Shown here one piece after another: positions 6,203-55,395 of a stretch of DNA of 64,000 nt. Numbering within the stretch: position 1 is the stretch's first letter; each line of letters opens with the position of its first letter. The DNA comes from an uncultured bacterium (lineage in GTDB: Bacteria > Omnitrophota > Omnitrophia > Omnitrophales > Aquincolibacteriaceae), in the NCBI GenBank assembly GCA_964508905.1, contig CAZDVO010000002.1:46330-110329 (forward strand), read 5' to 3'. The notes beneath the pieces were generated by a model. It made no database searches, had not been told where the DNA came from, and worked only from the letters and a program-made list of their open reading frames with translations. Both the position numbers and the translations under genes were made by a program.

Positions 6203-7888
6203 CTATATATTATAACGATTTGTGATTGGCATGCGGCGGCCGAACCAGGCCTTTTCAGTGACACGAAGAATGGGCGGCGTCTGGCGGCGCTTGTATTCAT
6301 TATGGTCGACTTTCCGCATAACATCCTCCACTAATGGGGTCAGACACAATTTCCCTAAAATTGTGTCTGACCCCTTTTTGAGACGGCGGAAGATCTCATC
6401 ACACCCCAGATTCTTTTCGATATACAAACGAAGGATCGCATCCAGGATCTCGTACGGCGGGAGCGAATCCTGATCTTTCTGATTCGGACGAAGTTCCGCC
6501 GAAGGCGCTTTGATCAACGTGGCTTCCGGGATCACCACGCCGAGCGAATTCCGATAACGCGCGAGGCGGTAAACATCCGTCTTGTAAACATCGCCGATCA
6601 CGGCAAGGCCACCCGCCATATCCCCATAGAGCGTGCAATACCCCATCGCAAGCTCGGATTTATTCCCGGTCGTCAGCACCAGCCGGCCCTCGTCATTAGA
6701 GAGATACATCAGTTCGAGACCGCGCAATCTCGCCTGAAGATTTTCCATCGCCAAACTCGGCCCACGATCCACGGGCCATGCCCCGCGCAGCTCGCTGTTC
6801 AAGAATGTTCCGTACATCTTCGTGATAGGATGCACTTCAAATTCGATTCCAAGATGCTTCGCCAAAAGCTCCGCATCCTTCCAACTCCCCTCCGAAGAAT
6901 ACGGCCCGGGCATCGTAACGCCCTTCACCGCATCCTTCCCCAATGCATCGCCGGCAATCGTGGCCACCAAGGCGGAATCAATGCCCCCGCTCAATCCGAT
7001 CAGGGCTTTCTTGAACCCGTTCTTCCCGAAATAATCCCGGACGCCGAGGACAAGCGCACGATAAATTTCTTCAACCGTTTTCAACCGCGCAGGTTGAAAG
7101 GGTTTTCCACCGACAAGAAAGAGGCCTTCTTCGAACGCGGGAGCCTGGAAGGTCACACGGCCTTTCTCGTTCATCAGAAGACTTCGCCCGTCGAAGATCA
7201 GATCATCCTGCCCGCCCACTTGATTCACATACAGGATCGGAAAACCGTAGCGGCGGGTATGCCCGGCGAGAAGTTTTTCCCGAGCGGCCGCCACCCCGGC
7301 ATAATAAGGCGATGCGGAAAGATTGAGGACCAGGTCCGCTTTTTTCCGGGCGATCGCCGCGAGAGGCTTCACTTCGTATCGGTCATCCCAAATATCTTCG
7401 CAGATGGTCAGACCGATCTTGATCCCTCTGAAAGGAACGACCAGCGTCTCGGCGCCGGGCTCAAAAAAGATCTCTTCCAGGAAAACGTCGTAGGTGGGAA
7501 GCAACTGCTTGTGATAGACCGCGCGCACCTTACCGTTTTCAATCCACGCCGCGGCGTTATAGGAGCATGATGCCGGGTCCAGCTTTCGAGAAGAGGGCCC
7601 TGTCCCCTTGTCAATAAAACCCAGAACCGCGGCGATCTTTTTGCCACGCGTCGCCGCCGCGATACGTTTGAGCTGACGCAGGCCGTCGGCCACGAACTGT
7701 TTTTTATTCGCGAGATCCCACACAGGATAACCGCAAAGCGCCGCTTCGGGGAAAACGATCAGGTCCGCGCCCTGGGCTTCCGCGTCGGCGATCCAGCGGA
7801 GGATCTTCGTGGCGTTCGCCGCATAGTCCCCGACCGTCGGGTTCATCTGCGCGAGGGCGATCTTCAGAGGTGTCTTCAGGGGCTTCAT
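6203..7888 (-). CDS. nadE: Glutamine-dependent NAD(+) synthetase (C-N hydrolase domain plus NAD synthetase domain)
   Basis: 561 aa. N-terminal nitrilase-type motif LIVFPEAALCGYP. C-terminal PP-loop SGGIDSALVATIAGDALG. Length and architecture match bacterial NadE. Stop is TAG at 6203-6205. Confidence 0.9.
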   Translation of the reverse strand: MKPLKTPLKIALAQMNPTVGDYAANATKILRWIADAEAQGADLIVFPEAALCGYPVWDLANKKQFVADGLRQLKRIAAATRGKKIAAVLGFIDKGTGPSSRKLDPASCSYNAAAWIENGKVRAVYHKQLLPTYDVFLEEIFFEPGAETLVVPFRGIKIGLTICEDIWDDRYEVKPLAAIARKKADLVLNLSASPYYAGVAAAREKLLAGHTRRYGFPILYVNQVGGQDDLIFDGRSLLMNEKGRVTFQAPAFEEGLFLVGGKPFQPARLKTVEEIYRALVLGVRDYFGKNGFKKALIGLSGGIDSALVATIAGDALGKDAVKGVTMPGPYSSEGSWKDAELLAKHLGIEFEVHPITKMYGTFLNSELRGAWPVDRGPSLAMENLQARLRGLELMYLSNDEGRLVLTTGNKSELAMGYCTLYGDMAGGLAVIGDVYKTDVYRLARYRNSLGVVIPEATLIKAPSAELRPNQKDQDSLPPYEILDAILRLYIEKNLGCDEIFRRLKKGSDTILGKLCLTPLVEDVMRKVDHNEYKRRQTPPILRVTEKAWFGRRMPITNRYNI

Positions 7889-8023: not shown

Positions 8024-11000
8024 CTATGCGGAAGCGGCGACACGAGACTGGGTGGCCACAAAATTCGCGAGCTCGGCCATGAGAGACTCCAACCCGCCCA
8101 GCTTTTCCACGGACACGAAGTGATACCCCATCGACCAGATCGCGTCGTTGAGCAATTTATCAGCCGCCAACAGCGTGGACGCTGTTTGCTTGAGCGGATT
8201 CCGGGCCCCCACCACGCTCAAGAGATGCCGACGAGAACCGATCTTCCGAGTCACGACAGAGTCTTCACGATCCGTGATAAGAGCCACGGATTGCCCCAGC
8301 GGCGCCGCACTGTTATAGAAACTCGCAAAGGCTCCGACAAACTCGTTCTCATTGGCAAATGCACGAACTGCGAAATTCTGCGGCAAAGCACCCATCTGGC
8401 TAAGAGCCGCAAGTTCTTTCTCGAACGTAGCGACCTCAGAAGCTTCCGCGATCAATGCGAGCACCACCGCGGCCTTCGGGTTATATCGCGCAAAGGTTAC
8501 CAAAGGCAGCACGCTCGCCGCATCCGGAATCCCCTGCCGCTGGTCAACCACCATCCGTTCCGTTGAAGCTGTCGCGGATGAGCTCATGATCTTGTTAAAC
8601 ACCGGCCACTTCTGCGCAAAAGCGGAAGGAACCGTCGAAACCTGCTGAAAGTGACGGGTACCTGCAAAAAGCTCCGGGGCAATCTCGGAAGCATATGCCG
8701 GAGTGCTCGACAGGAGCGGCGAAACCGTATTCGCCGCCACCCGGATCGCCGTCCCGATCTTTGCCCCTAAGCTGCTCGCATCCACCGCAAGGGCCAACGG
8801 AGTATCAGTCATCTCATAAGTTCGCGCTTCGGAGCGAGATAGAACCTCATGGGCCCGCGCATCAGATTTCAAGGGAGTAACAACCGCTTCAGGCGCTATA
8901 GACTGAACAACACCCGTTGACGTGACGGCTTTCAGTCTGGCAATGGCCACGACAAGCGCTTCATGGGCAGGATTGGGGCGACGTTCCACGCCTGTATTTG
9001 CAGACCCCACAGAATAAAGCCTTCCCGTATCTCCAGGCCCACCCGTTTCAAATTGCTCTTCGGAAACACCGTAGACAAGCTCGGCAGGCATGGTCTTCAG
9101 GATTTCTCCCAAGGAAGCGACCATCGTGGGGTTATTGACCGATTGAAACATATCAACTAAGGCGAGAATAGCACCTTGTGCAGGATCTATAACTTCATAA
9201 GGTCTTGTATCCCCCGTGCGATACTTCAGCTCTTCAACGAGAACGGGAATGCCGCTAAGATCCTGTAGCTTAAAACGCGCCTGCGCAGCAGCAATGCGCA
9301 CATCCAGATATTTATGTTTCAATTCCTTGCCGAGTTCTCGCAAAGCGGCGAGGTCATTCAGCCGAGTAATAGCCGCCCAACGAATATGAGGATTTTCGTC
9401 GCCCAAGATATCGATCAATATTGGAATAGCCCGCGGATCGTTGAGCACCCCAAGCGTATTGATAGCCTCCACCCGGCGGTTATTCTTGCGTTCCTCAAAA
9501 ATCCCCCAAAGCCAAATACGGAAACTCAGAATCCCCCCAAGAACCGTTCCCAGGACAAACCCCGCGACCACGGATGTCATCGATCCCATTAAATATCCCA
9601 CCAGGCCACCCATAACGATACTCCCGAGAAATGAGATCATTGAACCGTGGTCACACCACTTGGGCTGAAGATCCGATATGGCTTTCTGGAATTGTTTTTC
9701 TTGCTCGGGCGTCAGGCGGGCTTGCCCTGAGTTTGCCGAACGGGATTCTGAGCGGGACTTTACCTGGGGTTCAAGAATGCTTAACGCTTTCAGAACAGCA
9801 TCCCGAACCAAGAGATCAGGATCCCCGGCAACCGCTTTTAACGCAGGGATCGCCTGAGATTCTTTGATCCCACCAAGAATCTTAGCCGCAGCCATTCGAC
9901 GATCGGCGACCTTCCCCGGAAGCAAAACCCCACCCTTTCGAGGTTGGAGATCCATGATCAAATGCTGAATCAACGCTTGTCTCAAAACACGCACCTCTTC
10001 CAGGGCTCTAGATCCGAGGATTGGTTCAACATCTTTATCCAACCTGCCGGACTGCCAAAGGATCTCTTGCAAGCCCCGCGCGGGATCTACGGGAATTGGC
10101 GCCGCATAATCATAAACGGTCGTTGCGATACCAGCCTGAGACAACGCCCCCCGAAACGCCAACGAGCCGCGAATCTGGAGCAATGGCGCATGCATAAAAA
10201 TGGCCGAACGACCTTGATATCCCGAAGCCAGTTCTCTTTTAAGAATATCGACAGAAAAAACGCCGTTGTCCGTCATTCCTTGGGACGCCTTCTCCACCCA
10301 TATCGCTTCAGCGGGTACTCCGGCTCGAACCAGAGCATCTTTCATCACTAAAGCCTCCGCACGAACGGATTCCCCCGTCTGTCCATTCGTCCCACGATCG
10401 GGATCTTCAGGAAGCGGTTTGATATGTTTGCCAAAGCGCCCGGATACGATAACCCTGGACATTTTGTGAGCAAAAAAGATCTTAGCCGCCTCCTGAGCCA
10501 CGGCTTCACTGTCGGGACTTCCGAAAATCACCAAAAGATCAGCTTCTCGAGGCAGTGCATCCCGCTTAGCCATCAAAGCGACGATCTGCTGCGCTTCTTT
10601 TTCTCGAATGGATTGAAGAATCGCGCCGGCGGATTCTTCAGCAGAACGGTTCGTGTTATCGATCTCAACGGCATCCGCGGCTTTCCTGAAAGGAGCCACG
10701 GGGCGGATACTATCGATACGGTCACGTTCCAAAAGATCCCGCTTCACCTGCTCGAGCGTGATCTGTTTTCCGCCCCCCTCAAAATCACGCATTCTCCGCT
10801 TCGCACGAACATCGGGATCCGCCGTCAGAAAAAACTTATACGGTGTATCAGGAAAAACATCCGCCCCCACATTCCGGCCTTCAATCACCATATTGTCGGC
10901 TTCCCCAAGCTCACGTCCGGTTTGAAAAACCCAACGGAGCACGGCAGAATGGCGTGAAACAAGTGCAACGGCATTACCCACCTCGGGACTCCGGATACTT

Positions 11001-14000
11001 TCCGTCAAAGGGACCCCATCACGAAAGACCACTGTTTTCCCTTCGGCATATTTCACATCGATCCGTGTGCGAGCCAGCATGCTCTCGATCCCCGCAGCAT
11101 CATCCAGATCCAGCTTTTCATTCAAGGCCTTCTCAGCCACAGCTCGATTCAAAACACCAAGCTCAATGTGCTTATAGCCAAGCGCTTGGGCAAGCTTACG
11201 CGCCACAGTTCCCTTCCCCGTCGCCGAAGCCCCATCCATGGCAATCACCGTGGTTTTAAGCGGGTTCAGCTTAAGATCCAACTCCCGCGACTCAGAGCGA
11301 CCGACCATTTGACTGGCCGCCCTGACCTGGAGTTCGATCTCATTCCCCTGCCTCATGACAGGAATGCCGAAGAAATCCTTCTCCACACCGTCGGGCAAAC
11401 CGTCCAGTTCCCTTTTCACATCAGCTGTGCGCATGTCGTTCCGCCATCCCTCATTCATCATAGCCCGCAGCACCAAGGCACCGGCATCACGAATGGCTGC
11501 TTTTCTTAGTTCAGGCGCCTCTGATCTTACAAGGTCCGTTCGGATAGCAATGTCTCCGCTCCCAGAAATTTGAGATAACTGGGCAAGAAACTTCATAAAC
11601 TTCACGTACTGACGATAACCCCTTCCATGTTCGATCAAATAATTACAAATCCAGACGGTCCCGAGAATGATATCCAGATCATCTCGAAGGCTTTTGCGTA
11701 ACTGAGCCTCCTCGGCTCCGAACAATTGGCTAATAGTAGCTTTCAAAACCTTTATTTGAGTATGGTCTAAAAGAGGCGCTTGAAGATGCGGACGGGCCGC
11801 CATTTCAAGCCGGTATTCGTCATAGCGCTCCGTCAGCCCCTTCAACCCTTTTGGAGCCAGCCATGTCGTCATGGTTTCCAATTGATGAAGAGGCAACTTG
11901 TTATAACGATCATCGAGCGATGCCGCATCGGCCACAACATGCAGGACCAAGTACGGCATGAGCGTTCCGGAAGAAAGGTACCCTTTGTATCCCTTCGGAA
12001 CCTCGAGAAATTTTTTGGCGCGCAATTCTCCAAGATAAGTAGGGCCGGCCTCCATATGTTTCAATACGATCGCGGCTATCATTTCCTTTTCCTCTGCGGC
12101 CATCGGCAGAGGTGCTAGAAATTTACGAGCAATATCAGAACCTCTTTTTTCATGCCCCGTTCCATTCAGATCCTCAGAATATCCCGTATCATGGAATCGA
12201 ATCGCCAAACGAAGCGCCTGCTGTTCCTCAAGCGATAATTTGTCAAAGAAATCCTTCAACGCTTTTAAGCTCTTCCGATACCGCGCTTTGGTTGCATCCT
12301 TTGTTCCTTCAGGCATCCGTCCAAGGAAATAAGCGAAGTCCCCACGGGTAAGCGCTCTAAAATAGTTCTCCACCTGCACCATGTGTTGGGCGCGCCCCTC
12401 ATCGTCCTTGAGAATTTTCTGGTAGGCCGGGATGTCTTCGATGGCAATGATCTGCGATCCCGGATCCGCCTGCGCGGGCATCAGGCGCGATTGAGCTGAG
12501 TTTGTCGAGCGAGATTCGGAGCGACCACGCCCATTCGGTTTCGACATATGCTGAAGACTGATAAGAGCCAAAAGAACTCCGACCCCAACGCAAGCGTATG
12601 TCGCTGTGGGATTAGCATCAAAAAAAGCATGCAGGTCTCTGATCCAACCAATCTCATTTGCACTCACATGAGCAAGCAATGGGAGGGGCATAAAAGAGGG
12701 ATATCTCTCATTCCAATCTGCTTCGTCGTAAGCATGGTCCCTATCGCCACCTCTATACGCCGGTCCAGATGACCTACCCACCTCTCGCTCCAAGCGATCC
12801 GCTTCTTCCCGCTCAGCGCGTTCCATCTCTTCCCTCGCTATTCTTTTTTCATATTCCGCAAAGTCCTTCAGCGCCACTTCCGAACGAGGATCGCCCATTT
12901 TTCTTAATGCTTCCGCCGCAGCTCTTCCGGCATACTTGTACAACTCGTCCATCAGAGCCGACACCGCCCGAAGGTCCCCGATCACTCCCAACTGAGCAGC
13001 AACAGCCTTATTAAAATTGCTACCAAACCTCCGAATTCCAAGAGCTTCAATCAGCATGGGAACGGCCACAGCTCCTCGGACTCCCATCGCTTTCACTAAA
13101 TCTATAGCCAACGCATCGTTACGAGTAGTCTTTATAGCTTCAAGCAAGGCCTCCAAACTCGCCTCATCTGTCATCTGACTAAGCAAATGAACGGCGAGAG
13201 AGCGATTGCCGAGTCCGCCATGCAAAACCTCAGACAGCACGGGAATTGCTCTGGGGTCCTTCAGCTCACCCAAAGCAATCGCCACGAAATAACGAAAATC
13301 CCATCGTTGATCTTTTAACGTAGCATCAAGCGCAGAGGCAAAATGTTCTTTGAGTTCCCTCAGAGATTTTTTTGCTAAAGATTTGCGATCGCGTCCATAA
13401 TTATTAAACCTACCATCCCACCACTTGGGCTGGAGATCACTCAACACCTTCCGGAATTGTTTTTCCTGCTCGAGCGTCAGGCGGGCTTGCCCTGAGTCTG
13501 TCGAACGGGACTCAGAACGCAAACTCTTCCTCGACTTGATTGCTTCCAAAGATTCAGCCGCTTGTTTCGAGATCTCCTGGCTTCGATAAGTCACAGCATC
13601 ATTCAACAATTGTTCCACCGCGGGGGAATCGAATTCGGCTAAAGCGCTAACAATCAAAGCCTTTGTTCCCGCGGAGATCGGTTCGCGAGCAAGACCCGTT
13701 TTGTAAGCGTCATCGTAAAAGGCTCCAATCAAGGCTCTGAATGATTTCAAACTGCCGGCTTTAGCATACGCGGCCAGTTGTTCCACCGCCCGAGCACAAA
13801 CAGAAGGATCTTCGTCCCTCATAAGAGCCCGCAAACTCCGCAGAGCCTCAGCACCCACTTCAAAACGAGTCGGCTGGGGTCGCCTTAAAGAATTTACGGC
13901 ATAAAGAAAACACGTGATCATGCCGGCGAGGGCAAAGATCAACACAGCTGTTTGATGATCCTTTATGAAGAGAGAGAGAGGCTCGTTCCCGGCAACAGCA

Positions 14001-16518
14001 AGAAGCGAAAGAGGAATGAAGGAATTATGGCTCTCCCATTCGGCTCTATCGTAAGCATAGTCCCTGTCGCCGCCTCGATACGCCCCGGGGAAGGACCTGA
14101 GCCCCCTCGCCGATTGACGACGAGCGCCGAGAACCACAGGAAGAACGAAAATACCCACAAACGCGCTAATACCTAGCACGCGACCACCATATACGGCGAA
14201 AAAATAGTGCATCTTACTGATTCTATACAATGCCTTTGCCGCAGCCTCGGAATCATAGCCGAAACCACGCCGAAATATTGCTCTAAGCCTGGGGATCGCG
14301 GATGAATCATTAATTTCACTACTTTCGCCACGATCCACAAGACATTCGAAAGCTCTGTAAAACATTGGCCACTCTTGGCTATAAAATGCTGATTTTAAAG
14401 CGATAGTTACGGAGCGATCAGGGATCTCACGAAGTGCCTCCTGAGCATAAAAAAAAGATTTCGACCCCGACAAGGCGTTAATCAATTCAGGCACAGCCGC
14501 AGGGTCCCTTACTGCCCCCAGGGCATTTTGGGCAGAATACCTTACCGAAACAGGCTCGCTCTCATCATTACAAATTCTCACCAACGCGGGAATCCGCGAA
14601 ATTTCATCTATTGCTTTTCCACGCAACGGGATCATCCCCATCACCGCCGCGAGCATTAACTTTGCCGCGATAACACTACGCCTTCTAGGATTGATTTCTT
14701 CCTTATCCGTTCGCCGCGCTTCAGCACGAGCCACAGAGGACGTCGATGCAGGCGTCGGCGAACCAAAAGTAGAGGTAGTTACAGACTTAGAAAGGGACGG
14801 ACGGAGTGAGGCCTTTTCAGAATGGATCAGGCCGGAGATAAGGCCGCGAATCTCGGAACGCCAGGCTCGGGTTTGATCCTGGCCCGTGACGACAATACGA
14901 TCGCTAATCGGATTCATACCCAGGAGCGGAACGGCCTGGGAGGTCGCAAAGTCCCGCGACCCCATCATGGCCTTGAGATAAATATCATGGTCGCGTTTCG
15001 AAACTTCATTGATGCGCGGGGTGATCTGGAGATAGGAACAATGCTTGGACACCGCAAGCTTCTTGAGGCCGTCGGTGTGGAAACCGCCTGTCACGATCAC
15101 GGCGCGATCCTTCTTTTCCAGGTTCATGCGTTTGAGAGCATTCGCAAACATCTTGTTTTCACGAGCTACAGCCACAGCATAAAATTGTATTGCCTGCTCG
15201 TAAATCGGCTTAACCTTCTCAACTTCCGAGGAGAGACTGCGTCCCACCGGGGAAGTTCCTGAGGCGCATAGCTCTTCGTACTCAGCGCGAGTTAATTCGA
15301 GTGAAAATAATCGGCGTAGCAGATAAAGCTCCCGCGACTTCGAAAGATATTCTTTTTCATCCGCGGTCCTAGCCAAAACCGTCAGGAGCTTCTCTTTCAA
15401 ACGAACCGTCTCCTCCTGCAGGCCCTTCCCCTCCATCTCCTGCATCAAAATGATGTATTGAGCATACCGCATCCAATTTGGCCACGGGGCCATGGAAAAG
15501 TCTTTGGAGAGTTTATTGAAAACAAGATCAAAGGCGCGGCGCATCATGGAATAACCATCCGTCGTCCGGCTGACAGTCTTCAGCAGGTCTGTTTCGGGGG
15601 CTTGCAGGAGGGTTTTGAAGGCATCGAGAATCTCTTTGGAAACCTTGCGCCGGCCAAGCTCTGATAAAAACGCATCGGCTTCGCGGCGGGCTTTTTCACG
15701 GTCGATCTTGGAGCCGATGGCCTGTAAACGGAAATAGCGTATCAGGAAAGGATATGAGTCCTGATAAAAGGCGTCTGAAAGGTCGGTCTTAAGATGCTTG
15801 CGGCTTCCTTCACCCAAAGCCTTGATCCAGCTTTCAAAGGAAACGGTCCCCACCCCCAACGCTTCCTCTTGTCGAACGAGATTCAGGAGGTCTTTATTCA
15901 GCTTCGATGAAAAACGCCGGTCGAGCGCGGCCCTCAACGAACCCAGGAATTTCTCCGCGGTCTTTTCTTTTTTCACAACGCTGATAAACGCATCACGATC
16001 CTTCTTATAGGCATCAAGGTCTTCAATCCCCCACCCTTCGGTTTTGTCCGTCGACTCGATCAAAAAGGACTCAGGCCCGGTAAGATAGCCTTCTTGCATA
16101 AGCTTGTCCGTGACCTTCTTATTGAAATCGGGGTGTTTCGGGAAAAGGCGAAAGAGCTCGGGCTGAAGCTTATTCCCCGCGCCTTCAAGGAGGAGCAACT
16201 TCACGGACGAGTTTTTTTCGATATAGCCAAGAAGCTTTTCGATATTCTTCTCGGCCTGATAATTCCCGTGCGCGGACTGGATATGAATGAATGTGGGGGC
16301 CAGAGGATCCCCCATCATGGTATCGGTCACCTGCCCGAGCTCCGTCGGGATTGCAAGGGAGGCGGCGTTGAGCGCGGACACCTCGGCACGTCCGGCCAAG
16401 GATTGCGGCTGGAGCGTGGACACACTGATCCCTTGGGCAGGAGCGCCCCAGCTGATCTGCGTCGAGACGAAACAAAAAATTGTCACAAGGCTGATCGCTT
16501 TAAGCGTTTTGCTGAAGG
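8024..16518 (-). CDS. Giant multidomain membrane protein (~2,830 aa): N-terminal module paralogous to the 10,119-aa neighbour, HEAT repeats, TM helices, HD-domain-like, cytidylate-kinase-like and DUF218/YdcF-like domains
   Basis: The ORF track gives 8024..16588 with a non-ATG start. The likely true start is the ATG at 16518, with RBS AAAGGAG 10 nt upstream (rc of 16519-16540), giving MRSFSKTLKAISLVTIFCFVSTQISWGAPAQG, a signal/anchor sequence. Domain motifs seen: VIAMDGASATGKGTVARKLAQALGYKHIELGVLNRAV (Cmk P-loop); LAIRFHDTGY...GHEKRGSDIARKFL...LKHMEAG...HVVADAASLDD (HD-like); LLVIFGSPDSEAV...SGRFG...GESVRAEALVMKDALVRAGVPAEAIWVEKASQGMTDNG (DUF218); multiple PRAIPxL HEAT-like units; hydrophobic helices. 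Confidence 0.85.
9650..9760 (-). repeat. Intragenic ~105-bp DNA repeat, copy A (encodes ...QARLTPEQEKQFQKAISDLQPKWCDH...)
   Basis: ccacttgggctgaagatccgatatggctttctggaattgtttttcttgctcgggcgtcaggcgggcttgccctgagtttgccgaacgggattctgagcgggact is ~85% identical to 13430-13535. A weaker third copy lies at 12481-12545. Confidence 0.7.
10050..10560 (-). other. DUF218 (YdcF/ElyC/SanA-like) domain
   Basis: LLVIFGSPDSEAVAQEAAKIFFAHKMSRVIVSGRFG...GESVRAEALVMKDALVRAGVPAEAIWVEKASQGMTDNGVFSVDILKR fits the DUF218 pattern (vvLGg..., iivSGG..., sEAevM..yL...GVP...I..E..S.nT.eNa). Confidence 0.5.
10640..11270 (-). other. Cytidylate kinase (Cmk)-like P-loop NMP kinase domain embedded in giant protein
   Basis: TTVIAMDGASATGKGTVARKLAQALGYKHIELGVLNRAVA...RIDVKYAEGKTVVFRDG...ALVSRHSAVLRWV...NMVIEGRNVGADVFPDTPYKFFLTADPDVRAKRR matches the Cmk consensus (IAIDGPAGSGKGTVAK...YLDSGAMYRA...). 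P-loop DNA at ~11190-11250. Confidence 0.6.
11800..12300 (-). other. HD-domain-like (metal-dependent phosphohydrolase) segment
   Basis: H...HD...H...D spacing: RFHDTGY, GHEKRGSDIARKF, LKHMEAG, HVVADAASLDD. The DNA for FHDTG is at ~12185-12200. Confidence 0.4.
13420..13535 (-). repeat. Intragenic ~105-bp DNA repeat, copy B (encodes SRSESRSTDSGQARLTLEQEKQFRKVLSDLQPKWWDG)
   Basis: Direct DNA-level similarity to 9650-9760, read off the sequence. A second repeat family lies at 12690-12790 and 14025-14110 (tcgtaagcatRgtccctRtcgccRcctcKatacgcc), encoding AYRGGDRD(H/Y)AYD.A.W followed by a TM helix. Confidence 0.7.
14900..16518 (-). other. Conserved N-terminal ~540-aa module shared with the 10,119-aa protein (possible TraB/GumN-like fold)
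   Basis: TFIHIQSAHGNYQAEKNIEKLLGYI...VKLLLLEGAGNKLQPELF...KVTDKLMQEGYLTGPESFLI and DRAVIVTGGFHTDGLKKLAVSKHCSYLQITPRI align with IILHVQDAHINEEAQRNIANILRYF...LGLVSLEGASGELNTDLF...VADYFLREGRLTGPEYLAV and LSAIVTGGFHTPGIEKYLQEKGLSYIVVAPRI of the larger protein. Confidence 0.6.
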
Positions 16519-16588
16519 ATCTCATATCCGTTTTTCTCCTTTGATCGTCCATGTTTTTAAAACTAAAACACCGGGATTGCCGTCCCAA

Positions 16589-16870
16589 AACGTCTTTTTA
16601 AAAAAGCTCTAAAACCGCCCGAAAGTTAACTGCTGTATGGGAATAAATCAAGGGGAGGAATGAAATAAATCCTTTGTAAATCTTTTGAAGGGCGAGGGAT
16701 ATCTCACCTCAGGCGATGCGGATAGAACTGGGCCCGGGTGTACGATTTTCATCATTAAGCAATTTATAGCAACATCACAATCCGTAAGACGAAAAGATAT
16801 ACGGCATTCGGCACAAGCAAACCGGCCGGCTCAGCGCAAAATATGCCAGCTGAGCAAGAAACAAAGGTCG
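16589..16870 (-). promoter_or_regulatory. Intergenic region between the two giant genes (leader/promoter of the 2,830-aa gene)
   Basis: ~350 bp of non-coding sequence between TAA (16871-16873) of the upstream giant ORF and the ATG at 16518. Contains the RBS and the AT-rich segment 16560-16700. Confidence 0.35.
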
Positions 16871-19800
16871 TTATGCCGCGATGGCGATGGAACGGGCAGC
16901 CTCGATAGCGGCCTCCACGACTTGGAGCGCCGTTAACGTCCGGGCAATACCCGCGATCTCACGATCCGTGACCACCACGATCTCCAGACCCAAGGAACCA
17001 GCCAGCAATTCGCCATAAGTCTTGGCATCCAGTTGCGAGGCGCCACTGATCCTCGTCGCAGTCGCGCGCGAGAGGTTACGGCCAGCCTGCTTCAAGCCGG
17101 CATCAAAGGCTTCTTCGATCGACGCGATAACGACCGCGCACTTGGTCATATCAAAGCCATATTGCGTCAAGAACGCCTTGGCGGAGGCCTCGTCAGCTTC
17201 ATTCTTCACCGCGATCGAGAGGTAGATATTGTCAGTCGATTTAAGCGATTTCGCGAAGGACTCAAGGCCCGCCTGATTGAATCCGTCCTGGAAGACATAT
17301 TTCGGAGCCTCAGCGCCCACGATCACGTCGGCATCAAGGCCCAAAGCCGCTTGCATCTTGGGTTCCGCCGCAAAATTCGAGATCACCTGCGTGAATTCGT
17401 TCTCGATCCCAAGAGCCTTCACGTGCTCCACCGTACGAGCGAGATCAAAACGCATCGCCTGCGAGGACGCAATACCCGCAACCATTCTCTGCGCCACAGG
17501 GCTCAACGCCGGCTTTTGCTGCCCAGCCATCTCCGGTGCGGGAGTTCCGAGCTTCTTTAATTCGTCCTCAATAGCCGCTTGGCGCGCCGCTTCAGCAGTC
17601 ACTGCAGGCCGCAACTCCGAGCGTTTCGTCTCAGTCTTCGCGGGAGCTTCAGTCTCGGTAGCAACCGGCAAAGGCGTGTAATCCGAGAGACGCTCCAACT
17701 CCGCCAAAAGCGCGGAAGCCTTGGGATGAATGACAAGCATCTTCGCGTTGGCCTCACGGATAGCTTTGGTCAGAGTTTCCCCTTCCGCCGGGACTTGCGC
17801 CAATTCACGGCCGGCCGACGCGGGATTCTTAACCGCACGAGCAAGCATGTCTCCAAGCCCCTTGATCTCATTGCCACGGTTCACATGAGGGTAGCCGGAA
17901 ATATCTTCAGGCAACCCCGCGAGATAGATCGCGTCAAGCATCAACTGCTCATCCGCCATTTTTTCAACATTCGGTTCATAAACCCTCAGCGCGGCGACCT
18001 GGAAATTTTCCGTTGAAGAACCCGTCTGCCACCAGAACGCCTGCGCCGTCGCCTTCACACGGGCGGTCAGCATGGGGCTTGTGACCATATAGATCCTCGG
18101 ATTTTCAACCGACGCGGGGATCTTCTCTCGGAGGATCTCCGCGGAATTCCGAAGATTGGCCTCCGTGTTCCGCGCGCGAGCTTCTTTCGTGATCATGCCG
18201 GCTGGAACACCTTCCGCCGTTAAAATATAAGCCATAATGTCCGCCTCGGTCTGCCACAGGGCGACCACATCCGAGGTTTCATTAAGCCCGTAATGCTCCA
18301 TAGCCGCCTTCCTAAGCGGAAGATAACCACGCCCTCGGCCACCCGTCACCACGATCGGCAACTGGGTCTTAAGAGCTTTCCACGTCGCGGCAAATCCTGT
18401 AAAAGTCCGCAGATCGGGGTTACCAAGGACTAAAAATCCATCGGCGGGCTTCGTTTGGAGATCATCCCCCTTCGAAAGATCATCCACCAGCTGCTGCATC
18501 TTCGGCACCATCACAGAACGAACGGCCGCGATCTCACGCGACTCAGAACGCCGCGTTCCGATCGCGGAAAGAATCGTTTGGGGAGCATTATCCTGCAATT
18601 CCGACCAACCGAGCGGAAACGTCTGGATCAGAGAAAGGGTTTCTTCTCCGGGCTTTTGCGTCGGTTTGAGATCGGCTCGCATGAGCTCCACCGAATTCAC
18701 AGCAACGGTACCGAATTCCGTATCCCGATTGGCGCGAACCTCGTCCATGAGCACCTTAAATTTTTCGCCGGTCACCGAATGCTGGAGCCGAAACAGTTTC
18801 GCATGGATAATGTGGCCGGATGATTTATCTTCGGCGTGGGGATTATCCGTAAAAGCTTGGTGCAACCCGGAACGAAGGCCGCCAAGATTTGACGGTTCAT
18901 CGACATAGCCTTGCGCGGTCACCGTACCATCTTTGGCGATCGTCAACCCTTTGTAGGTAACGCGGAACGGCATTATCCTGCCCGTTACCCCGCGGATCAC
19001 ATCCTGAATTTCGGCAGATTGATACGGCGCCATATCGATCACGCCGTTATACGTTGTGACAAAGGCAAAGATCGTGCTGTGAAGCTCACCCGTCCGGACG
19101 ACATCGGCATCAGTCAACTGAGCCGTTTGAATGATTCGTTCTGTCATCTTCCACAGATTATTCTGAACCGCGCCCTGCGGCACACGCATCAAGACAGGAA
19201 CTGTCGTCCCGTATCGCTGAGCGCCCTTTTCATCAAAATAATTTTTATGCGCCATGATCGCCGCCTCACTGATCGAACCCTGTGCTTCCGTTTCGGTAAA
19301 CATCCGGTCGTAATACCCCCTCAGCACCTTGGGATCCAACTCTGCCACCGTTTCCGCCAACCGCATCTCCGAGCGGGCGTTAAGCTGCACGTCTTTCCCC
19401 GGCGTCCTTGATTCAGAACGAGGTTGAACCATTTTGGGTTCACTAGTCTCGCTTTTTTTCACGTTCCCCTCGCCTGTCGAACCAATTCCATGCAGAGGCA
19501 CCGATGATTCCTTACCCGGCGCAACTGATTCTGGCACAACACGCGCTATCAGCATCAAAATGCCCGCGACTCCCGAAGCAATCGCGAAACCGATCCAGCC
19601 TCCAATCGAAAACCCGATCCCGCCAATCGCGGCGATTCTCGTAATCATCCTGATATATTTAGCCGATTGTTTTGAGCCAATAACAAGCCCCGCGACGATC
19701 ACAAAACCCACAATCGCCGCCACAACACTCCATCCAAGCACATGCCCCACAGCAGTAACAGGCACGAGAACCAAGACAGGCAAAGCAATCGAACCCAGAA

Positions 19801-43800: not shown

Positions 43801-46800
43801 ACGCGTGAGCAACGCCTTTCACATCAACCGTAAGCGTCACGAACATCCCGAGCTTGGCATCCCAGATCCAAGCGAATTTGTTTCCCGATTCGTCCGTAGT
43901 CAGATACCCCACGGTATGGGCCCCGGGAGCTTTCGAAAAAGCCGCCTGACATTCAATGGCGCCGGCAACAGCGTTCACATCACTATTCGTCTCAACAAAA
44001 GCCTTCCGGTCCGGTTCCGATGCAACCCAGGCATAAACCGTCGCGATGCCGATGATCGTTTTACCGGCGCCGGTTGCGGCATAGTTCAGGATATCTTCGA
44101 TCGCCGCCTTCTCGCCTTTTGGCGCACTCTTGATCTTGTCGCTATTGCCTTTCAATATTTCGATATTTGCCAAAACAGCTTCAACCTGTCCGAGGGTCGG
44201 ATTCTTGGATTTAGCTTCCAGCTTCGCAAGGCGTTCCGCTTCAGCCTGGCTCTTGCCTTCCGTCAGATATTTTTTAACCAATTGAGCCTGCTCATATTCC
44301 AAAGTCGCCGTTTGAATTCCAACGTAGATCTGTTCAACCAGCTTATTCCCTTTAACAAGAGGATGATTTTGATCGATCACCTGGTTCAGATCCCTGACAT
44401 CGCGGGCAACGGGTTTTGCGGATTCTTCGGTGGTGGGCGCAACTGCGGCGGGAGCTGTGACGGTCTGGCGAGCGGCATCGCGCTCCTGGATATTGCGGGC
44501 GACGATCTCAAGCCCTTCCTTTTTAAGCGCCATCGTATAGGTATTGACAGGGATATTGACACCCTGTTGTCGATATCCATCGATCAAAGCCAACTGAGCC
44601 GTGATCTTCGCTGAACTAAAACGAACCAGAATGTCCCGGCGAAGTTTCGCCTGATCTTCCCCCTCGAGGACCGTACCCAAAGCCTGAACTCTCGCATCGA
44701 GCGTCGCAAACGTTCCAGTTGCAGCATCAAATCCAAATCTCAAGAAACGGATATCCCCGGCAAAACCGCGTTTTTCTAACGCGTCGATCTTCGCCGCTAA
44801 ATCAGAACTTTTAAGAACTCGTTTATAAAATCCCTCGGCAACGGAAAGCTTCTCCGCAGGGGTCGAGAGGATCCGCGGAAGGTTCGCCGTAATTTCGGCA
44901 GGAATTCCATACTTCGTCGTCAAAAGTTGGGCGTTCTCCGTAGCCCGCTTCGCTTCAAGCTCCCTTTGAAATGCGTCGGCGGCAATGGGCCCCGCCTCAA
45001 CCGCCACACCGCCAGGCAGCTGCAGGGCAGAAGTCCCCTCCACCGGAGCTACCACGCGCGATTCAGAGCGGGCAGCCTTCTTGACCGAATCGGGAACCTG
45101 GTCGGCATCCATCATATAGAAGGAAAGGACCTGATCCGTGGCCGGCATTGAGATCGACTTCAACGTGCTACGCAACGACGCCGCGACTTCCGATGTCTTG
45201 ACCCCATTCCCCTTGGCATCCAGCGAGAAGGCCAGATACGGGGCATCCCTCTTCGAGCCATCCTCCATCGGGATCATGAGAACCGTGTGTCCCCCAACCT
45301 TCACGACCCGGGAAGGTTTGAACTTTTTGACAAAAACATCAAATTGAGCGCGGTAATCCGCGGGCAGCGTAGCCACCGCGGCCTGCAGCTCCTGATAAGC
45401 CTTCCCTTTATCCGCAGCTGACAGGATCGAGATCGCCGCGACGAGCGGGAAATAAAGCATGTCGTCGCCTTTAAAGGCCGAGAAGTCTACCTTCCGGCCG
45501 AGCATACGCCACGCCGCCAACTGGAACCGCGGATCGTTCAGCGTCACAGCCTTGGGCTGCAGGAACGCCTCGGAAAGAACTTTCTCGATCGGAAGCGGCG
45601 TTTCGCGCAGCGAGGCGTCATAAAGCGCGTTTTCCCTCTTTTTATCGATCGCCTTGGTGATGCGAGGGGCGACTACTATATAAGAAAGCCCCTTCTCCTG
45701 AAGATACTTCTCAATCCCAGGCGTATGGAAACCGCCTGTGACGATGGCGGATAACTTCTGCCCGGTGGCAAGGGTTTTCTCGACCGCTCGCTCGATCAGC
45801 ACCCGGTCGCGTTCGAGAGCGGCTTTATAAAAGCGCTCCACACGCGGCAGGTCCTGATCGAGGGTCTTCACTTGGGACGGCAATCCGTAGGTGAAGTGGT
45901 ATTGCTTCATGAGCGGTGCGAGAAAACTTACGAACGTTTCGGACTTGAACTCGTCCTGGTAGGTGTAATAGAACTCGGCGTCCTGCTTGGTCAGGCTGAA
46001 ATCGAACATCTTGCAATAGATGTCATGGATACGAAGGATATGGTCCAGCCGGATCTGCTCCTGCGTCATGAAAAGCTTGGCCTTGACGGTCTTTTCGAGA
46101 AATTCGATCTCGTCAAAGATCGAGACGTCGATCGCATCATAAAGCTTCATGTACTGGATATACGCCATGACGTTCGCATGCTTGACCGCGAGGTCTTCCC
46201 CTCCTGACTGGGCCACGCTGATGCCGCGGATCTCCTGCTCCAGATAACCGTAATAAGCAGCTCGCTTCATTTTCTTCATACGGAAGTGGACGGTATTCGT
46301 CAAGAACCGCGCCAGCTTCTCGCGCGGAAGGAAGCGCTTCAGATCATTGACAAGGGCCTCGGTGTCCTGATCGGCTTTATCAAAATCGACTTTCCTCTCA
46401 AGATCAACCAACTCGAGAAGCGAGTGCATGCCCGGATATTCATCCAAGGCGATCTGCTGTTTGCGGCCAAGGTCGACGAGATAACGGACATAGGCGACCA
46501 TTTCCGGGCCACCCTCCTGGAATGAAGCCCGGCGGCGGATCAGATCCCGCATTTCTTCAGAGAACACGAACCGTCCGACATCCTCCATGGCTTTTTTGAG
46601 TTCGACGAGAACCGCTTCGTCGCGATCCTTGAACTCAAGAGCTTCCACATACGCAGTACGGTTCTCTTCGTAGAGGTCCCGGTCTTCAACGCCATAAAGC
46701 ATCATAACCGGCTTATCCACAACCGCCAGATATTCCGGCCCCGTCAAACGGCCTTCACGGAGGAAGTAATCGGCCACGTTGCGGCGGGCTTCTTTGTTCG

Positions 46801-53361: not shown

Positions 53362-55395
53362 TTATTCTAGCAGAAGCTGGCGTATATCCGCCAGCCGTTC
53401 CCGGGTTTTTCGCATACCTTCTTCGATGAACTTATCCGCGGAAAAAAACTCGATCCAGTGAGCGTTCGGCGCGGAGGCATGGATGAAGATATCGGCCTCC
53501 CCCCCCTCCATCCGCGCGATCTCGAACTCGGTGAACATGATCGAATTCATCAGAACGTTAAAGATATTGGCGGTATAACGGCGCTGGATACGGTCCCGGG
53601 TCTTCATCGCGATCCGCTGCCAATAGCCCCGCTGCTGAAAGCCTTCATGGAACGCTCTCCTCCGGCATTCATTGCGCTCGATCAGGTCCTTCGGGGCGGG
53701 CAGCACATTGACCGCCATGATCTTACGGACCCCCATATTCGAAAGGATCTTCACCGGGAGAGGATCAACGATCCCCCCGTCGATCAGGTAGCTCCCCTTA
53801 TGCGGAAAAGGCCTAAAAAAACCAGGGATCGAGATGGAAGCGCGGATCGCATTCAGCACGCTCCCAGATTCGAGCACCACTTCCTCCGAGGTTAAAAGAT
53901 CGGTCGCCACCACCTTCACGGGGATCCGAAGGTCCTGAAAGCTCATGTCATGCAAATAGGCAGAGAGAAAACGAATGATCTGGTCCCCTTTAAAAAAACC
54001 CCGATGGATAGCCGAGAGATCCTGGAACCCGAGCAGCTTAAAAAAAGCGTTTTTCTTATCAAGCGACTTGGCGATCTTTTCGATCTCATAGGAGTTATAT
54101 CCCGCCGCCCACAAAACTCCCAAAAGGGCCCCAATGCTCGAACCGGCCAGAACATCCACCGGGATCTTCTCCTCTTCAAGAACGCGCAACACCCCGATAT
54201 GCGAAAGCCCATACGCGGCCCCGCTTCCCAACACGAGCCCGACCAACCGTTCGGACCATTCTTTTGCCAGAAAGGTCAGCGTCTTCTCATACTGATAGCG
54301 CTGATACTGCAGCGAAGGTAATGTAGAAAAAAGTTGCATCTCGGGGGCGGCGGACGAACCCTTTCGAGCGATCGCACTCGCTTCCTGGGACGGCATCATG
54401 ATCTTGATCTCATTGCGGCTAAACCCAAAATCCTGACAAAGCTCGGTGACTTTCTTTGAAGCAAAGGTGAAGACATCAGCTCGCTTCTCAGCCCAAAGAT
54501 AGACCCGGTCTGAATAATTCAGAGCCTTGACCGCGACCGGAGTATTCCGGTCCGGAAGGCACACCACCAGATAATCATAACGATAAGTTAAGTAGGTCAG
54601 AAGGGTGCTGAATTTTTTCTCTTCTTCGTCCAACGCCGCGTTCACTTGAAAGGACAGAAGATCAAAGCCCCCCTCGCAGTGCCCGATCCCCGCCTGGATC
54701 GAAGATTCATGAGAGGGATCCAGCATCTTCATGTCCAGACCCGAAGCCATCCCTTTTTGAAAAACCGGCGGCAGGGCCCCCTTCAATTTCCCTGAGAGAT
54801 CAAGGAGCAGGACCCTCCCCTGGGTTTCGCCCCGAAGGGTCTTCATGAAATCAACGAGGAAAGTGGCCATGCCCTCGGTCGAAGCCGCAAAATAGAATGC
54901 CGCGATCCGAACTTCGCGCCGATGGTGACTGTAACCCAGTTCTTCCCGGGTCAAATGCCTGCCGAGAGAGCGGCTCAGGTGGAGAGAAAGTGAGGGGATC
55001 TCAACCAGCAACTTCTGAAAACTTTCGGCGCTGATCTTAAGCGCCACAGCATCGGTCTTCGCCTCCACCGAGGCACTGTGAGGGCTTCCGGTCAATAGCG
55101 AGGTTTCTCCAAAGTGCTCCCCCCGGTAGAAATAAAGCAGCGTTGTTTCCTTGTCCGCTCCCCGAGCCCGCGTAAAAAGACGGAAACGTCCGGAAATGAT
55201 GACATAGAAAGCGTCGGGAGCCGTCCCTTCTTCATAGATGATATCGCCTCGTTTGAACCCGACGAGACGGGAATGTTGTTCAATCAGCGCTTGTTCGGAA
55301 GAGGAAAGACTGGAGAAAAGCGGGATAGGATCGAGCAGATATCCCTCGCGGGTTTCAGGCTTTGCCTTTTTCCCAAAGGAGAAGAAATTCATCAT
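53362..55395 (-). CDS. Patatin-like phospholipase with N-terminal cyclic-nucleotide-binding domain
   Basis: 677 aa. cNMP-binding motif FGETSLLTGSPHSASVEA. Patatin oxyanion hole GSGAAYGLSHIGVLRVLEE. Serine lipase motif AGSSIGA. Asp-Gly region LIDGGIVDPLP. Confidence 0.8.
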   Translation of the reverse strand: MMNFFSFGKKAKPETREGYLLDPIPLFSSLSSSEQALIEQHSRLVGFKRGDIIYEEGTAPDAFYVIISGRFRLFTRARGADKETTLLYFYRGEHFGETSLLTGSPHSASVEAKTDAVALKISAESFQKLLVEIPSLSLHLSRSLGRHLTREELGYSHHRREVRIAAFYFAASTEGMATFLVDFMKTLRGETQGRVLLLDLSGKLKGALPPVFQKGMASGLDMKMLDPSHESSIQAGIGHCEGGFDLLSFQVNAALDEEEKKFSTLLTYLTYRYDYLVVCLPDRNTPVAVKALNYSDRVYLWAEKRADVFTFASKKVTELCQDFGFSRNEIKIMMPSQEASAIARKGSSAAPEMQLFSTLPSLQYQRYQYEKTLTFLAKEWSERLVGLVLGSGAAYGLSHIGVLRVLEEEKIPVDVLAGSSIGALLGVLWAAGYNSYEIEKIAKSLDKKNAFFKLLGFQDLSAIHRGFFKGDQIIRFLSAYLHDMSFQDLRIPVKVVATDLLTSEEVVLESGSVLNAIRASISIPGFFRPFPHKGSYLIDGGIVDPLPVKILSNMGVRKIMAVNVLPAPKDLIERNECRRRAFHEGFQQRGYWQRIAMKTRDRIQRRYTANIFNVLMNSIMFTEFEIARMEGGEADIFIHASAPNAHWIEFFSADKFIEEGMRKTRERLADIRQLLLE

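Follow-up and report, generated by a model that had tools for sequence, protein, structure and literature searches.

A single YdcF-type DUF218 domain in each of two giant membrane proteins from an uncultured Omnitrophota bacterium

Introduction

We use a combination of profile searches, structure modeling and comparison with relatives to study two giant open reading frames (ORFs), A and B, that lie in a 64,000-nucleotide stretch of DNA (the window) from an uncultured bacterium of the Omnitrophota (family Aquincolibacteriaceae; assembly GCA_964508905.1, contig CAZDVO010000002.1, positions 46,330 to 110,329 of the forward strand). We find that A and B each hold one true, though divergent, DUF218 domain, and that both domains are placed by their sequences in the YdcF branch of this family and not with the SanA/ElyC type. 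ORF A (window 16871-47230, minus strand) encodes 10,119 amino acids (aa) from a GTG start, with a frame that is open back to 47299 so that the true start is uncertain; ORF B (window 8024-16588) lies directly downstream on the same strand and encodes 2,854 aa. Both giants have a signal-peptide-like start and are multi-pass membrane proteins. The reading that we favor, and hold to be probable, is that the YdcF-branch domain in each giant is a conserved unit, probably ligand-binding or catalytic, of a giant and modular membrane-protein family.

DUF218 is a large family of bacterial proteins. In E. coli, its members SanA, ElyC and YgjQ are periplasmic and membrane-anchored and are tied to the balance between peptidoglycan and enterobacterial common antigen, unlike YdcF, which is cytoplasmic (PMC3879167, PMC12176290). 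YdcF has a fold similar to adenine-nucleotide alpha-hydrolases and resembles nucleotide-utilizing enzymes (PMC12176290, PMC3879167), and it is described as binding S-adenosylmethionine (AdoMet) by Chao et al., 2008, as cited in PMC12176290. Our literature search for the function of YdcF gave nothing past this 2008 structure. Which branch of the family the two domains belong to bears on how they are read: the original prediction, made from the letters of the window, had recognized DUF218 in both giants and had taken from ElyC and SanA the suggestion that the giants act on the cell envelope.

Results

Each giant protein holds one DUF218 domain

We scanned the full-length sequences of A and B against Pfam, in which PF02698 (DUF218) has a gathering score of 27.6 bits. 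Both proteins score above it, A with 48.2 bits (E 1.3e-12, aa 9618-9737) and B with 29.8 bits (E 6.4e-7, aa 2018-2148), so the predicted presence of DUF218 in both giants is borne out. The four peptide strings on which that prediction drew are all found exactly as quoted on the minus strand, at aa 9626-9635 and 9661-9696 of A (window 18143-18355) and at aa 2046-2053 and 2072-2109 of B (window 10262-10453). The segments that had been marked out for them, 17980-18440 and 10050-10560, lie in the right places and are too short. The full module is about 220-240 aa long, comparable in size to full-length YdcF; in A it covers aa 9559-9800 (window 17831-18556, minus strand), with the Pfam core at window 18020-18379, and in B it covers aa 1983-2200 (window 9989-10642, minus strand), with the Pfam match at window 10145-10537. 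A profile search of all six frames returns these two modules, one in A and one in B, and no further DUF218 copy elsewhere in the window, sub-threshold matches included.

The two segments are 24% identical (BLASTP, E 5e-6), and by their sequences they are distant paralogues. For the A module, an AlphaFold model built on 22 modules (pLDDT 88.6, pTM 0.86) has a sole significant match in the PDB, E. coli YdcF (3CA8; Foldseek E 4.6e-6, probability 1.0), with 266 aligned columns and a TM-score of 0.53-0.56; the structural comparison with YdcF that the original prediction had proposed supports its domain call. The B segment aligns with the sequence of 3CA8 (phmmer, E 0.006) and matches a module profile built without B (hhalign, 96% probability, E 5e-9). 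The three-layer alpha/beta fold of the YdcF type is accordingly assigned to A through its model and to B through its alignment with the 3CA8 sequence and with the profile of A. Local phmmer searches further connect the B module to three relatives, P0062, P0068 and P0057 (E 1e-10 to 1e-15), which themselves score 60-66 bits against PF02698.

It is worth asking whether such matches could arise by chance, or from composition, in very long ORFs rich in Ala and Leu. The score of B is just 2.2 bits above the threshold, and long proteins offer more opportunities for weak matches. Set against this are the E-values of both Pfam matches, the confident match to the YdcF fold together with the 96% reciprocal profile match, about 60 homologues with common motifs, and the complete lack of sub-threshold copies elsewhere in the window. 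We regard this explanation as refuted.

Both modules fall in the YdcF branch

Aligning the module profile with E. coli family members by hhalign gives a clear division: it matches YdcF with 96% probability (E 4e-9, 141 columns), whereas SanA and ElyC each receive 0.2%, that is, similarity that is not detectable. Individual columns divide in the same way. Three residues of SanA, T125, H149 and E182, are needed for its function (PMC12176290). The column of H149 holds His in SanA and ElyC, Met in YdcF, and Leu in both A and B, and where SanA and ElyC have a His-containing motif, A, B and YdcF have in common the motif P-x-[M/L]-x-x-R. The equivalent of T125, placed by motif register, is Thr in A (within RNTEAN), Met in B and Cys in YdcF. 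The Thr/His/Glu triad of SanA and ElyC, judged at its Thr and His positions, is thus incomplete in the two modules, with His replaced in both and Thr present only in A. It is because of the hhalign division and of the H149 column without His that we place both window modules in the YdcF branch.

This placement bears directly on a rival to our reading, in which the modules would be ElyC/SanA-like and face the periplasm, where they would tune undecaprenyl-phosphate-linked precursors of peptidoglycan or other glycans, so that the giants would be directed at the envelope of their own cell or of prey. Membership of PF02698 is common to the modules, ElyC and SanA, and for giants of the Omnitrophota an action on cell walls has been suggested (bioRxiv 10.1101/2023.11.21.568195). 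The envelope phenotypes at issue are cold lysis or a CPRG phenotype for ElyC and sensitivity to vancomycin or SDS for SanA. Transfer of these phenotypes nevertheless fails, because profile similarity to these proteins is not detectable, because the His that is essential in SanA is lacking, and because the E. coli paralogues are not interchangeable; in the original E. coli screen only ElyC gave an envelope phenotype (PMC3879167). The likely compartment of the B module, to which we return below, counts against it as well. We find the envelope-directed activity of the original prediction unsupported by this route, and the envelope interpretation of the giants is unproven.

Conserved residues suggest a ligand-binding or active site

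Conservation in the module is concentrated in particular positions. Across 22 modules, whose identity to the A module is just 28-36%, the columns P67, G72, G73, E104, P161, R166 and G214 are invariant, and the near-invariant columns include G75, G77, E125, S128, N134 and W175. The consensus of the module reads FLVLGNPD ... PIVLAGGRGRGT ... E.D ... E..PS.NT.ENF ... VT.PPLLLR. The motif set of DUF218 consists of a glycine-rich loop after beta-2, the motif E-x2-S-x-N-T-x-E-N and a downstream Arg, and it is found in both window modules: as the loop TGGRGRG, KEARARNTEAN (Ala in place of Ser) and LTAR in A, and as the loop SGRFGKH, VEKASQGMTDN and LQIR in B. All five aligned sequences have the downstream Arg, and E104, E125, N134, P161 and R166 are retained by both modules. 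Conserved glycines combined with conserved polar and charged residues would be the pattern of a ligand-binding or active site.

The same positions can be read less favorably. The modules could be catalytically dead structural or adaptor domains, serving as spacers or interaction surfaces much as HEAT, TPR and Ank repeats do, and giants of this kind do carry many scaffold repeats, such as HEAT_2 in B and TPR together with Ank in P0009. A departs from the conserved columns at a single place, the near-invariant S128, which is Ala; B retains S128, and its glycine-rich loop deviates, with G73 replaced by R and G77 by H. Enzymatic activity, moreover, has been established for no DUF218 protein (PMC12176290, PMC3879167), so that a ligand-binding or enzymatic role for the modules is drawn from fold and conservation. 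Against the adaptor explanation stands the fact that E104, E125, N134, R166 and the glycine-rich loop are invariant or nearly so at such low overall identity, which is typical of a ligand-binding or active site, and that each protein carries strictly one module, unlike repeats. We judge dead adaptor domains to be distinctly unlikely, and a conserved YdcF-branch unit with a probable ligand remains the reading that we pursue.

The module recurs once per protein in other giants

An exhaustive HMMER search (phmmer) with the last 790 residues of A returns 79 proteins, of which about 60 are matched over a region of about 235 aa that corresponds to A aa ~9559-9800. Such exhaustive searching was needed: word-index homology searches with the 2H plus DUF218 segment of A (the 2H-like module is described below) and with the 22-sequence module profile gave zero matches. 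Most carriers of the module are large, at 800-7,840 aa. No fewer than 30 share with A and B an N-terminal domain (see below), each with a single module at a variable position. Complete stand-alone modules exist as well, for example P0014 with 269 aa. In GTDB representative genomes the module lies inside giant ORFs that range from at least 3,371 aa (an ORF ended by its contig) to more than 5,200 aa, and the N-terminal domain of A and B is present in these carriers wherever the N-terminus is on the contig. The metagenome-assembled genomes (MAGs) that hold them are labeled Elusimicrobia, Omnitrophica UBA2337 and Planctomycetales. We found no close orthologue of A, either in GTDB representative genomes, searched with the C-terminus of A, or in JGI metagenomes, searched with the protein and for exact DNA; exact look-ups of the B and NadE proteins gave no match either.

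Across 22 full-length carriers no Pfam family other than DUF218 recurs, and DUF218 itself is detected in 9 of these 22 (E≤1e-3). P0005, P0009, P0012 and P0038 give no match to PF02698 despite clear homology to the module. With fewer than half of the carriers detected, routine annotation will miss this YdcF-like subfamily of giant proteins; one relative does bear the NCBI label 'YdcF family protein'. The other domains of the carriers are scattered and mostly single (NUDIX, NDK, His_Phos_1, GDPD, PALP, GFO_IDH_MocA, Bac_transf and M50), and they are accompanied by the scaffold repeats HEAT, TPR and Ank, of which P0009 has both TPR and Ank. P0068, whose module is most like that of B, also carries a Bac_transf domain, a polyprenyl-phosphate sugar transferase. 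P0038 is a 3,404-aa relative with 2H, YdcF-like and PALP domains. On its contig (JGI 3300009502, locus L015, region 9446-29660) the next gene also encodes a giant, of 5,382 aa, in which a DnaJ domain, a PRK-family kinase domain and a methyltransferase domain are found; these tandem giants parallel the A/B pair of the window.

The compartment of the modules

Where the modules sit relative to the membrane bears on the periplasmic, ElyC/SanA-like explanation. In B, the segment that contains the cytidylate kinase (CMP kinase, CMK) and DUF218 domains is bounded upstream by a transmembrane (TM) helix at aa 1327-1345 (window 12554-12610, minus strand), which is followed by the K/R-rich MSKPNGRGRSESR, and downstream of the module by a TM hairpin at aa 2317-2356 (window 9521-9640, minus strand), followed by the K/R-rich RIWLWGIFEERKNNRR. 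Because K/R-rich flanks on the side of the module fit the positive-inside rule, and because the CMK domain depends on ATP, this segment of B is most likely cytoplasmic. A module fused to an ATP-dependent CMP kinase between cytoplasmic-type flanks is not what the periplasmic explanation would have, nor are the stand-alone homologues that lack signal peptides (the complete P0014, P0025 and P0071); P0058 is a further stand-alone relative without a signal peptide.

Other observations lean toward export. The last hydrophobic stretch of A, at aa 9199-9231 (window 19538-19636, minus strand), comes before the tail that holds the 2H-like, DUF218 and C-terminal domains and is preceded by the K/R-rich loop KQSAKYIRMITR; should this stretch, about 31-33 aa long, cross the membrane a single time, the tail of A may lie outside the cytoplasm, an assignment that is ambiguous. 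In four relatives, P0022, P0062, P0054 and P0046, a Sec-type signal peptide stands right ahead of the module, and at least nine carriers have no predicted TM helix between a signal-peptide-like N-terminus and the module. Some relatives of the module are clearly exported. A local positive-inside tally over 44 carriers, crude and noisy as it is, leans the other way, with 17 placed inside, 7 outside and 20 left unclear. Taken with the signal-peptide-like starts and the multi-pass character of A and B, and with P0068, which joins a B-like module to a polyprenyl-phosphate sugar transferase, the signs of export keep the ElyC/SanA-like explanation in view, and we consider it unlikely rather than dismiss it. 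For ORF A the number of hydrophobic helices depends on the threshold (23-29, about 24), and we dropped TM-count parity as a topology argument since its outcome changes with that threshold.

Domains that accompany the modules

The most direct company of either module is the cytidylate kinase domain of B (aa 1782-1995, window 10604-11245, minus strand), a full-length match to PF02224 at 170.2 bits with an intact P-loop, DGASATGKGT. The B module follows it directly and contiguously, with zero hydrophobic segment between them. Among the 79 related proteins B alone has this fusion, and we therefore rejected it as a recurring trait. The remaining Pfam domain of B, besides Cytidylate_kin and DUF218, is HEAT_2.

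In A, the module is preceded at a distance of 42 aa by a 2H-phosphoesterase-like module (aa 9382-9517, window 18680-19087, minus strand). It scores 23.9 bits against AKAP7_NLS, just under the gathering score of 24.4, and has 17 homologues with two conserved His; its second motif reads HAK instead of HxT/S. The 2H homologues occur in other giants and in stand-alone proteins of about 232 aa (P0064-P0066). The order 2H then DUF218 is found in A, P0038 and P0009 only, and an iterated 2H profile gave no further adjacent cases, so that we rejected the two as a general pair. At its extreme end A has a conserved C-terminal domain of about 210 aa (aa 9900-10119, window 16874-17533, minus strand) with no match in Pfam or NCBIfam. 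The domain recurs at the extreme C-terminus of P0003 (972 aa), P0018 (1,591 aa), P0051 (638 aa) and P0039 (200 aa), and it is also carried by P0001, a 91%-identical fragment.

At the other end, A and B begin with the same domain of about 450 aa behind the signal-peptide-like segment (aa 75-530 of A, window 45641-47008; aa 78-535 of B, window 14984-16357; both minus strand). Its motifs are HxQDAH (HVQDAH in A), LEGA, FY..A..R and VTGGFH, with a long helical insertion between LEGA and FY..A..R. An AlphaFold model of its first 358 aa (A aa 70-427) reaches a pLDDT of 87.4 and has no fold match in the PDB by Foldseek; sequence-profile searches of the PDB gave no match, NCBIfam none, and Pfam none above threshold. 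The motifs were set beside the pattern GxxH ... E ... R ... GxxH of the Tiki/TraB/ChaN superfamily. Below threshold, the copy in B, and B only, weakly resembles Cofac_haem_bdg, which stands for ChaN in the Tiki superfamily, at E 0.016 and with 15.7 bits where 27.7 is the gathering score.

Both giants are also enriched in the short motif RS[E/D]xR, with six occurrences in A against a shuffle mean of 0.26 and six in B against 0.14. In A the sites are at aa 721, 7217, 9271, 9286, 9561 and 9870, of which the one at aa 9561, RSESR (window 18536-18550, minus strand), stands at the very start of the DUF218 module; in B they are at aa 577, 1024, 1356, 1764 (window 11285-11299), 2279 and 2585. Across 45 large relatives we count 110 occurrences, a density of 0.65 per 1,000 aa. 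The motif tends toward module boundaries, such as the start of DUF218 in A, the position before the CMK domain of B and positions after TM helices. We considered it as a universal tag of module starts and rejected this, since only 8 of 52 module starts have it; it is instead a common motif of linkers, with a possible role as linker or processing site. A literature search for the motif gave only irrelevant papers.

The rest of the giants and the window

Outside these domains the giants offer little to annotation. ORF A starts with a signal-peptide-like segment, and its TM helices form clusters near aa 1983-2489, 7146-7406 and 8577-9231; its first 8,000 aa (window 23231-47230) give zero Pfam matches at E≤0.01, and the first two of these clusters are the sole features seen there. 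Also on the minus strand of the window are genes for NadE, a thiolase, an acyl-CoA ligase, LepA, a signal peptidase, SPOR proteins and tRNA-Ala. An identical LepA is found on a 5.5-kb Logan contig. One further minus-strand protein, of 677 aa (window 53362-55395), combines a cyclic-nucleotide-binding domain with a patatin-like phospholipase domain.

Discussion

The picture that we propose is of a YdcF-like module, a Rossmann-like alpha/beta domain of about 230 aa, that would serve the giant-protein family as a conserved functional unit, not as an exchangeable add-on. It would probably bind, and perhaps turn over, a nucleotide-like or phosphate-bearing small molecule. The argument for such a ligand, a weak one, comes from the CMK fusion in B, from the nucleotide-handling domains among the carriers (NUDIX, NDK and His_Phos), and from the YdcF fold with its AdoMet binding. 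In B, the module would act on the cytoplasmic face of the membrane beside a CMP kinase that looks active. CMP kinase supplies CTP-dependent envelope precursors, and a cytoplasmic role in the metabolism of envelope precursors would equally count as envelope-directed.

The altered S128 and glycine-rich loop, the missing precedent for activity in DUF218 and the relatives that look exported, all given above, weigh against this proposal, as do two features of the evidence itself. The AlphaFold model covers the A module only, and the fold of B rests on sequence and profile alignment. In addition, the carriers were gathered with a query that contained the module, so that any claim that the module is a conserved core of the family is biased by design.

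A bolder version can be formulated, in which the YdcF-like module, the N-terminal domain (possibly Tiki/ChaN-like) and the RSExR linkers together define an undescribed family of giants in bacteria of the Omnitrophota and Elusimicrobiota type. The module would then be a unit that senses or processes nucleotides or cofactors, coupled to CMP kinase, NDK, NUDIX and 2H domains, and the RSExR motifs would be processing boundaries. We regard this full combination as a long shot. What does appear to be undescribed so far is the occurrence of a single YdcF-type module with a common N-terminal domain across giants of several uncultured lineages, with linkers enriched in RSExR.

The module finding stops short of explaining the function of the giants. 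A single recurring module of about 230 aa is nonetheless a tractable, soluble handle on proteins that are otherwise nearly unannotated, and the natural fusion of a CMP kinase with a YdcF-like domain is a hint that the substrate of the YdcF branch may be nucleotide-linked. There is also a caution here for annotation more widely: the envelope phenotypes of ElyC and SanA are not transferable to every match of PF02698.

Comparison with known systems

Among proteins of known structure, YdcF (3CA8) is the closest counterpart of the modules. It resembles them in its fold, aligned over the full length, in its size (about 230-260 aa), in an N-terminal helix and a C-terminal extension, and in its motifs: the glycine-rich loop (SGGIGHST in YdcF, TGGRGRGY in A), E..S.N..EN, P-x-[ML]-x-x-R, and a position without His where SanA has H149. 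Identity between the modules and YdcF is only about 19-24%, and YdcF is a stand-alone soluble protein of 266 aa, whereas the window modules are embedded, once each, in membrane proteins of 2,854 and 10,119 aa.

SanA and ElyC are like the modules in belonging to PF02698, in being membrane-associated and in having a conserved Arg after a beta-strand that aligns with theirs. They differ in their length of about 240-260 aa and in having just one or two TM helices, at the N-terminus, whereas A and B are giant and modular, and the B module, unlike SanA and ElyC, adjoins an ATP-dependent kinase.

The closest likeness to A and B as whole proteins is with the giants described from Omnitrophota, the 'Archaeovorins' and multi-enzyme giants (bioRxiv 10.1101/2023.11.21.568195, 10.64898/2026.06.07.730766). 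DUF218/YdcF and cytidylate kinase are absent from the main text of both reports, and PF02698 and PF02224 are absent from one supplement of the second. Relatives of the module were found in an Omnitrophica MAG but also in MAGs labeled Elusimicrobia and Planctomycetales. Most full-length Omnitrophota giants reportedly carry a divergent SecA/DEAD helicase domain; in A and B this domain gave no Pfam match at E≤0.01, in a sequence search that leaves structural detection possible. The features by which giant membrane proteins are recognized, that is, a length above 10 kaa, a signal peptide and/or many TM helices, and enzyme modules combined with repeats, are seen here, the length and about 24 hydrophobic helices in A, and HEAT_2 and CMK in B. 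Like the described giants, A exceeds 10,000 aa, starts with a signal-peptide-like segment and has numerous TM helices, and like them the A/B pair combines HEAT repeats and scattered enzyme modules (kinases and NUDIX among those of the described giants) with giant genes arranged in tandem.

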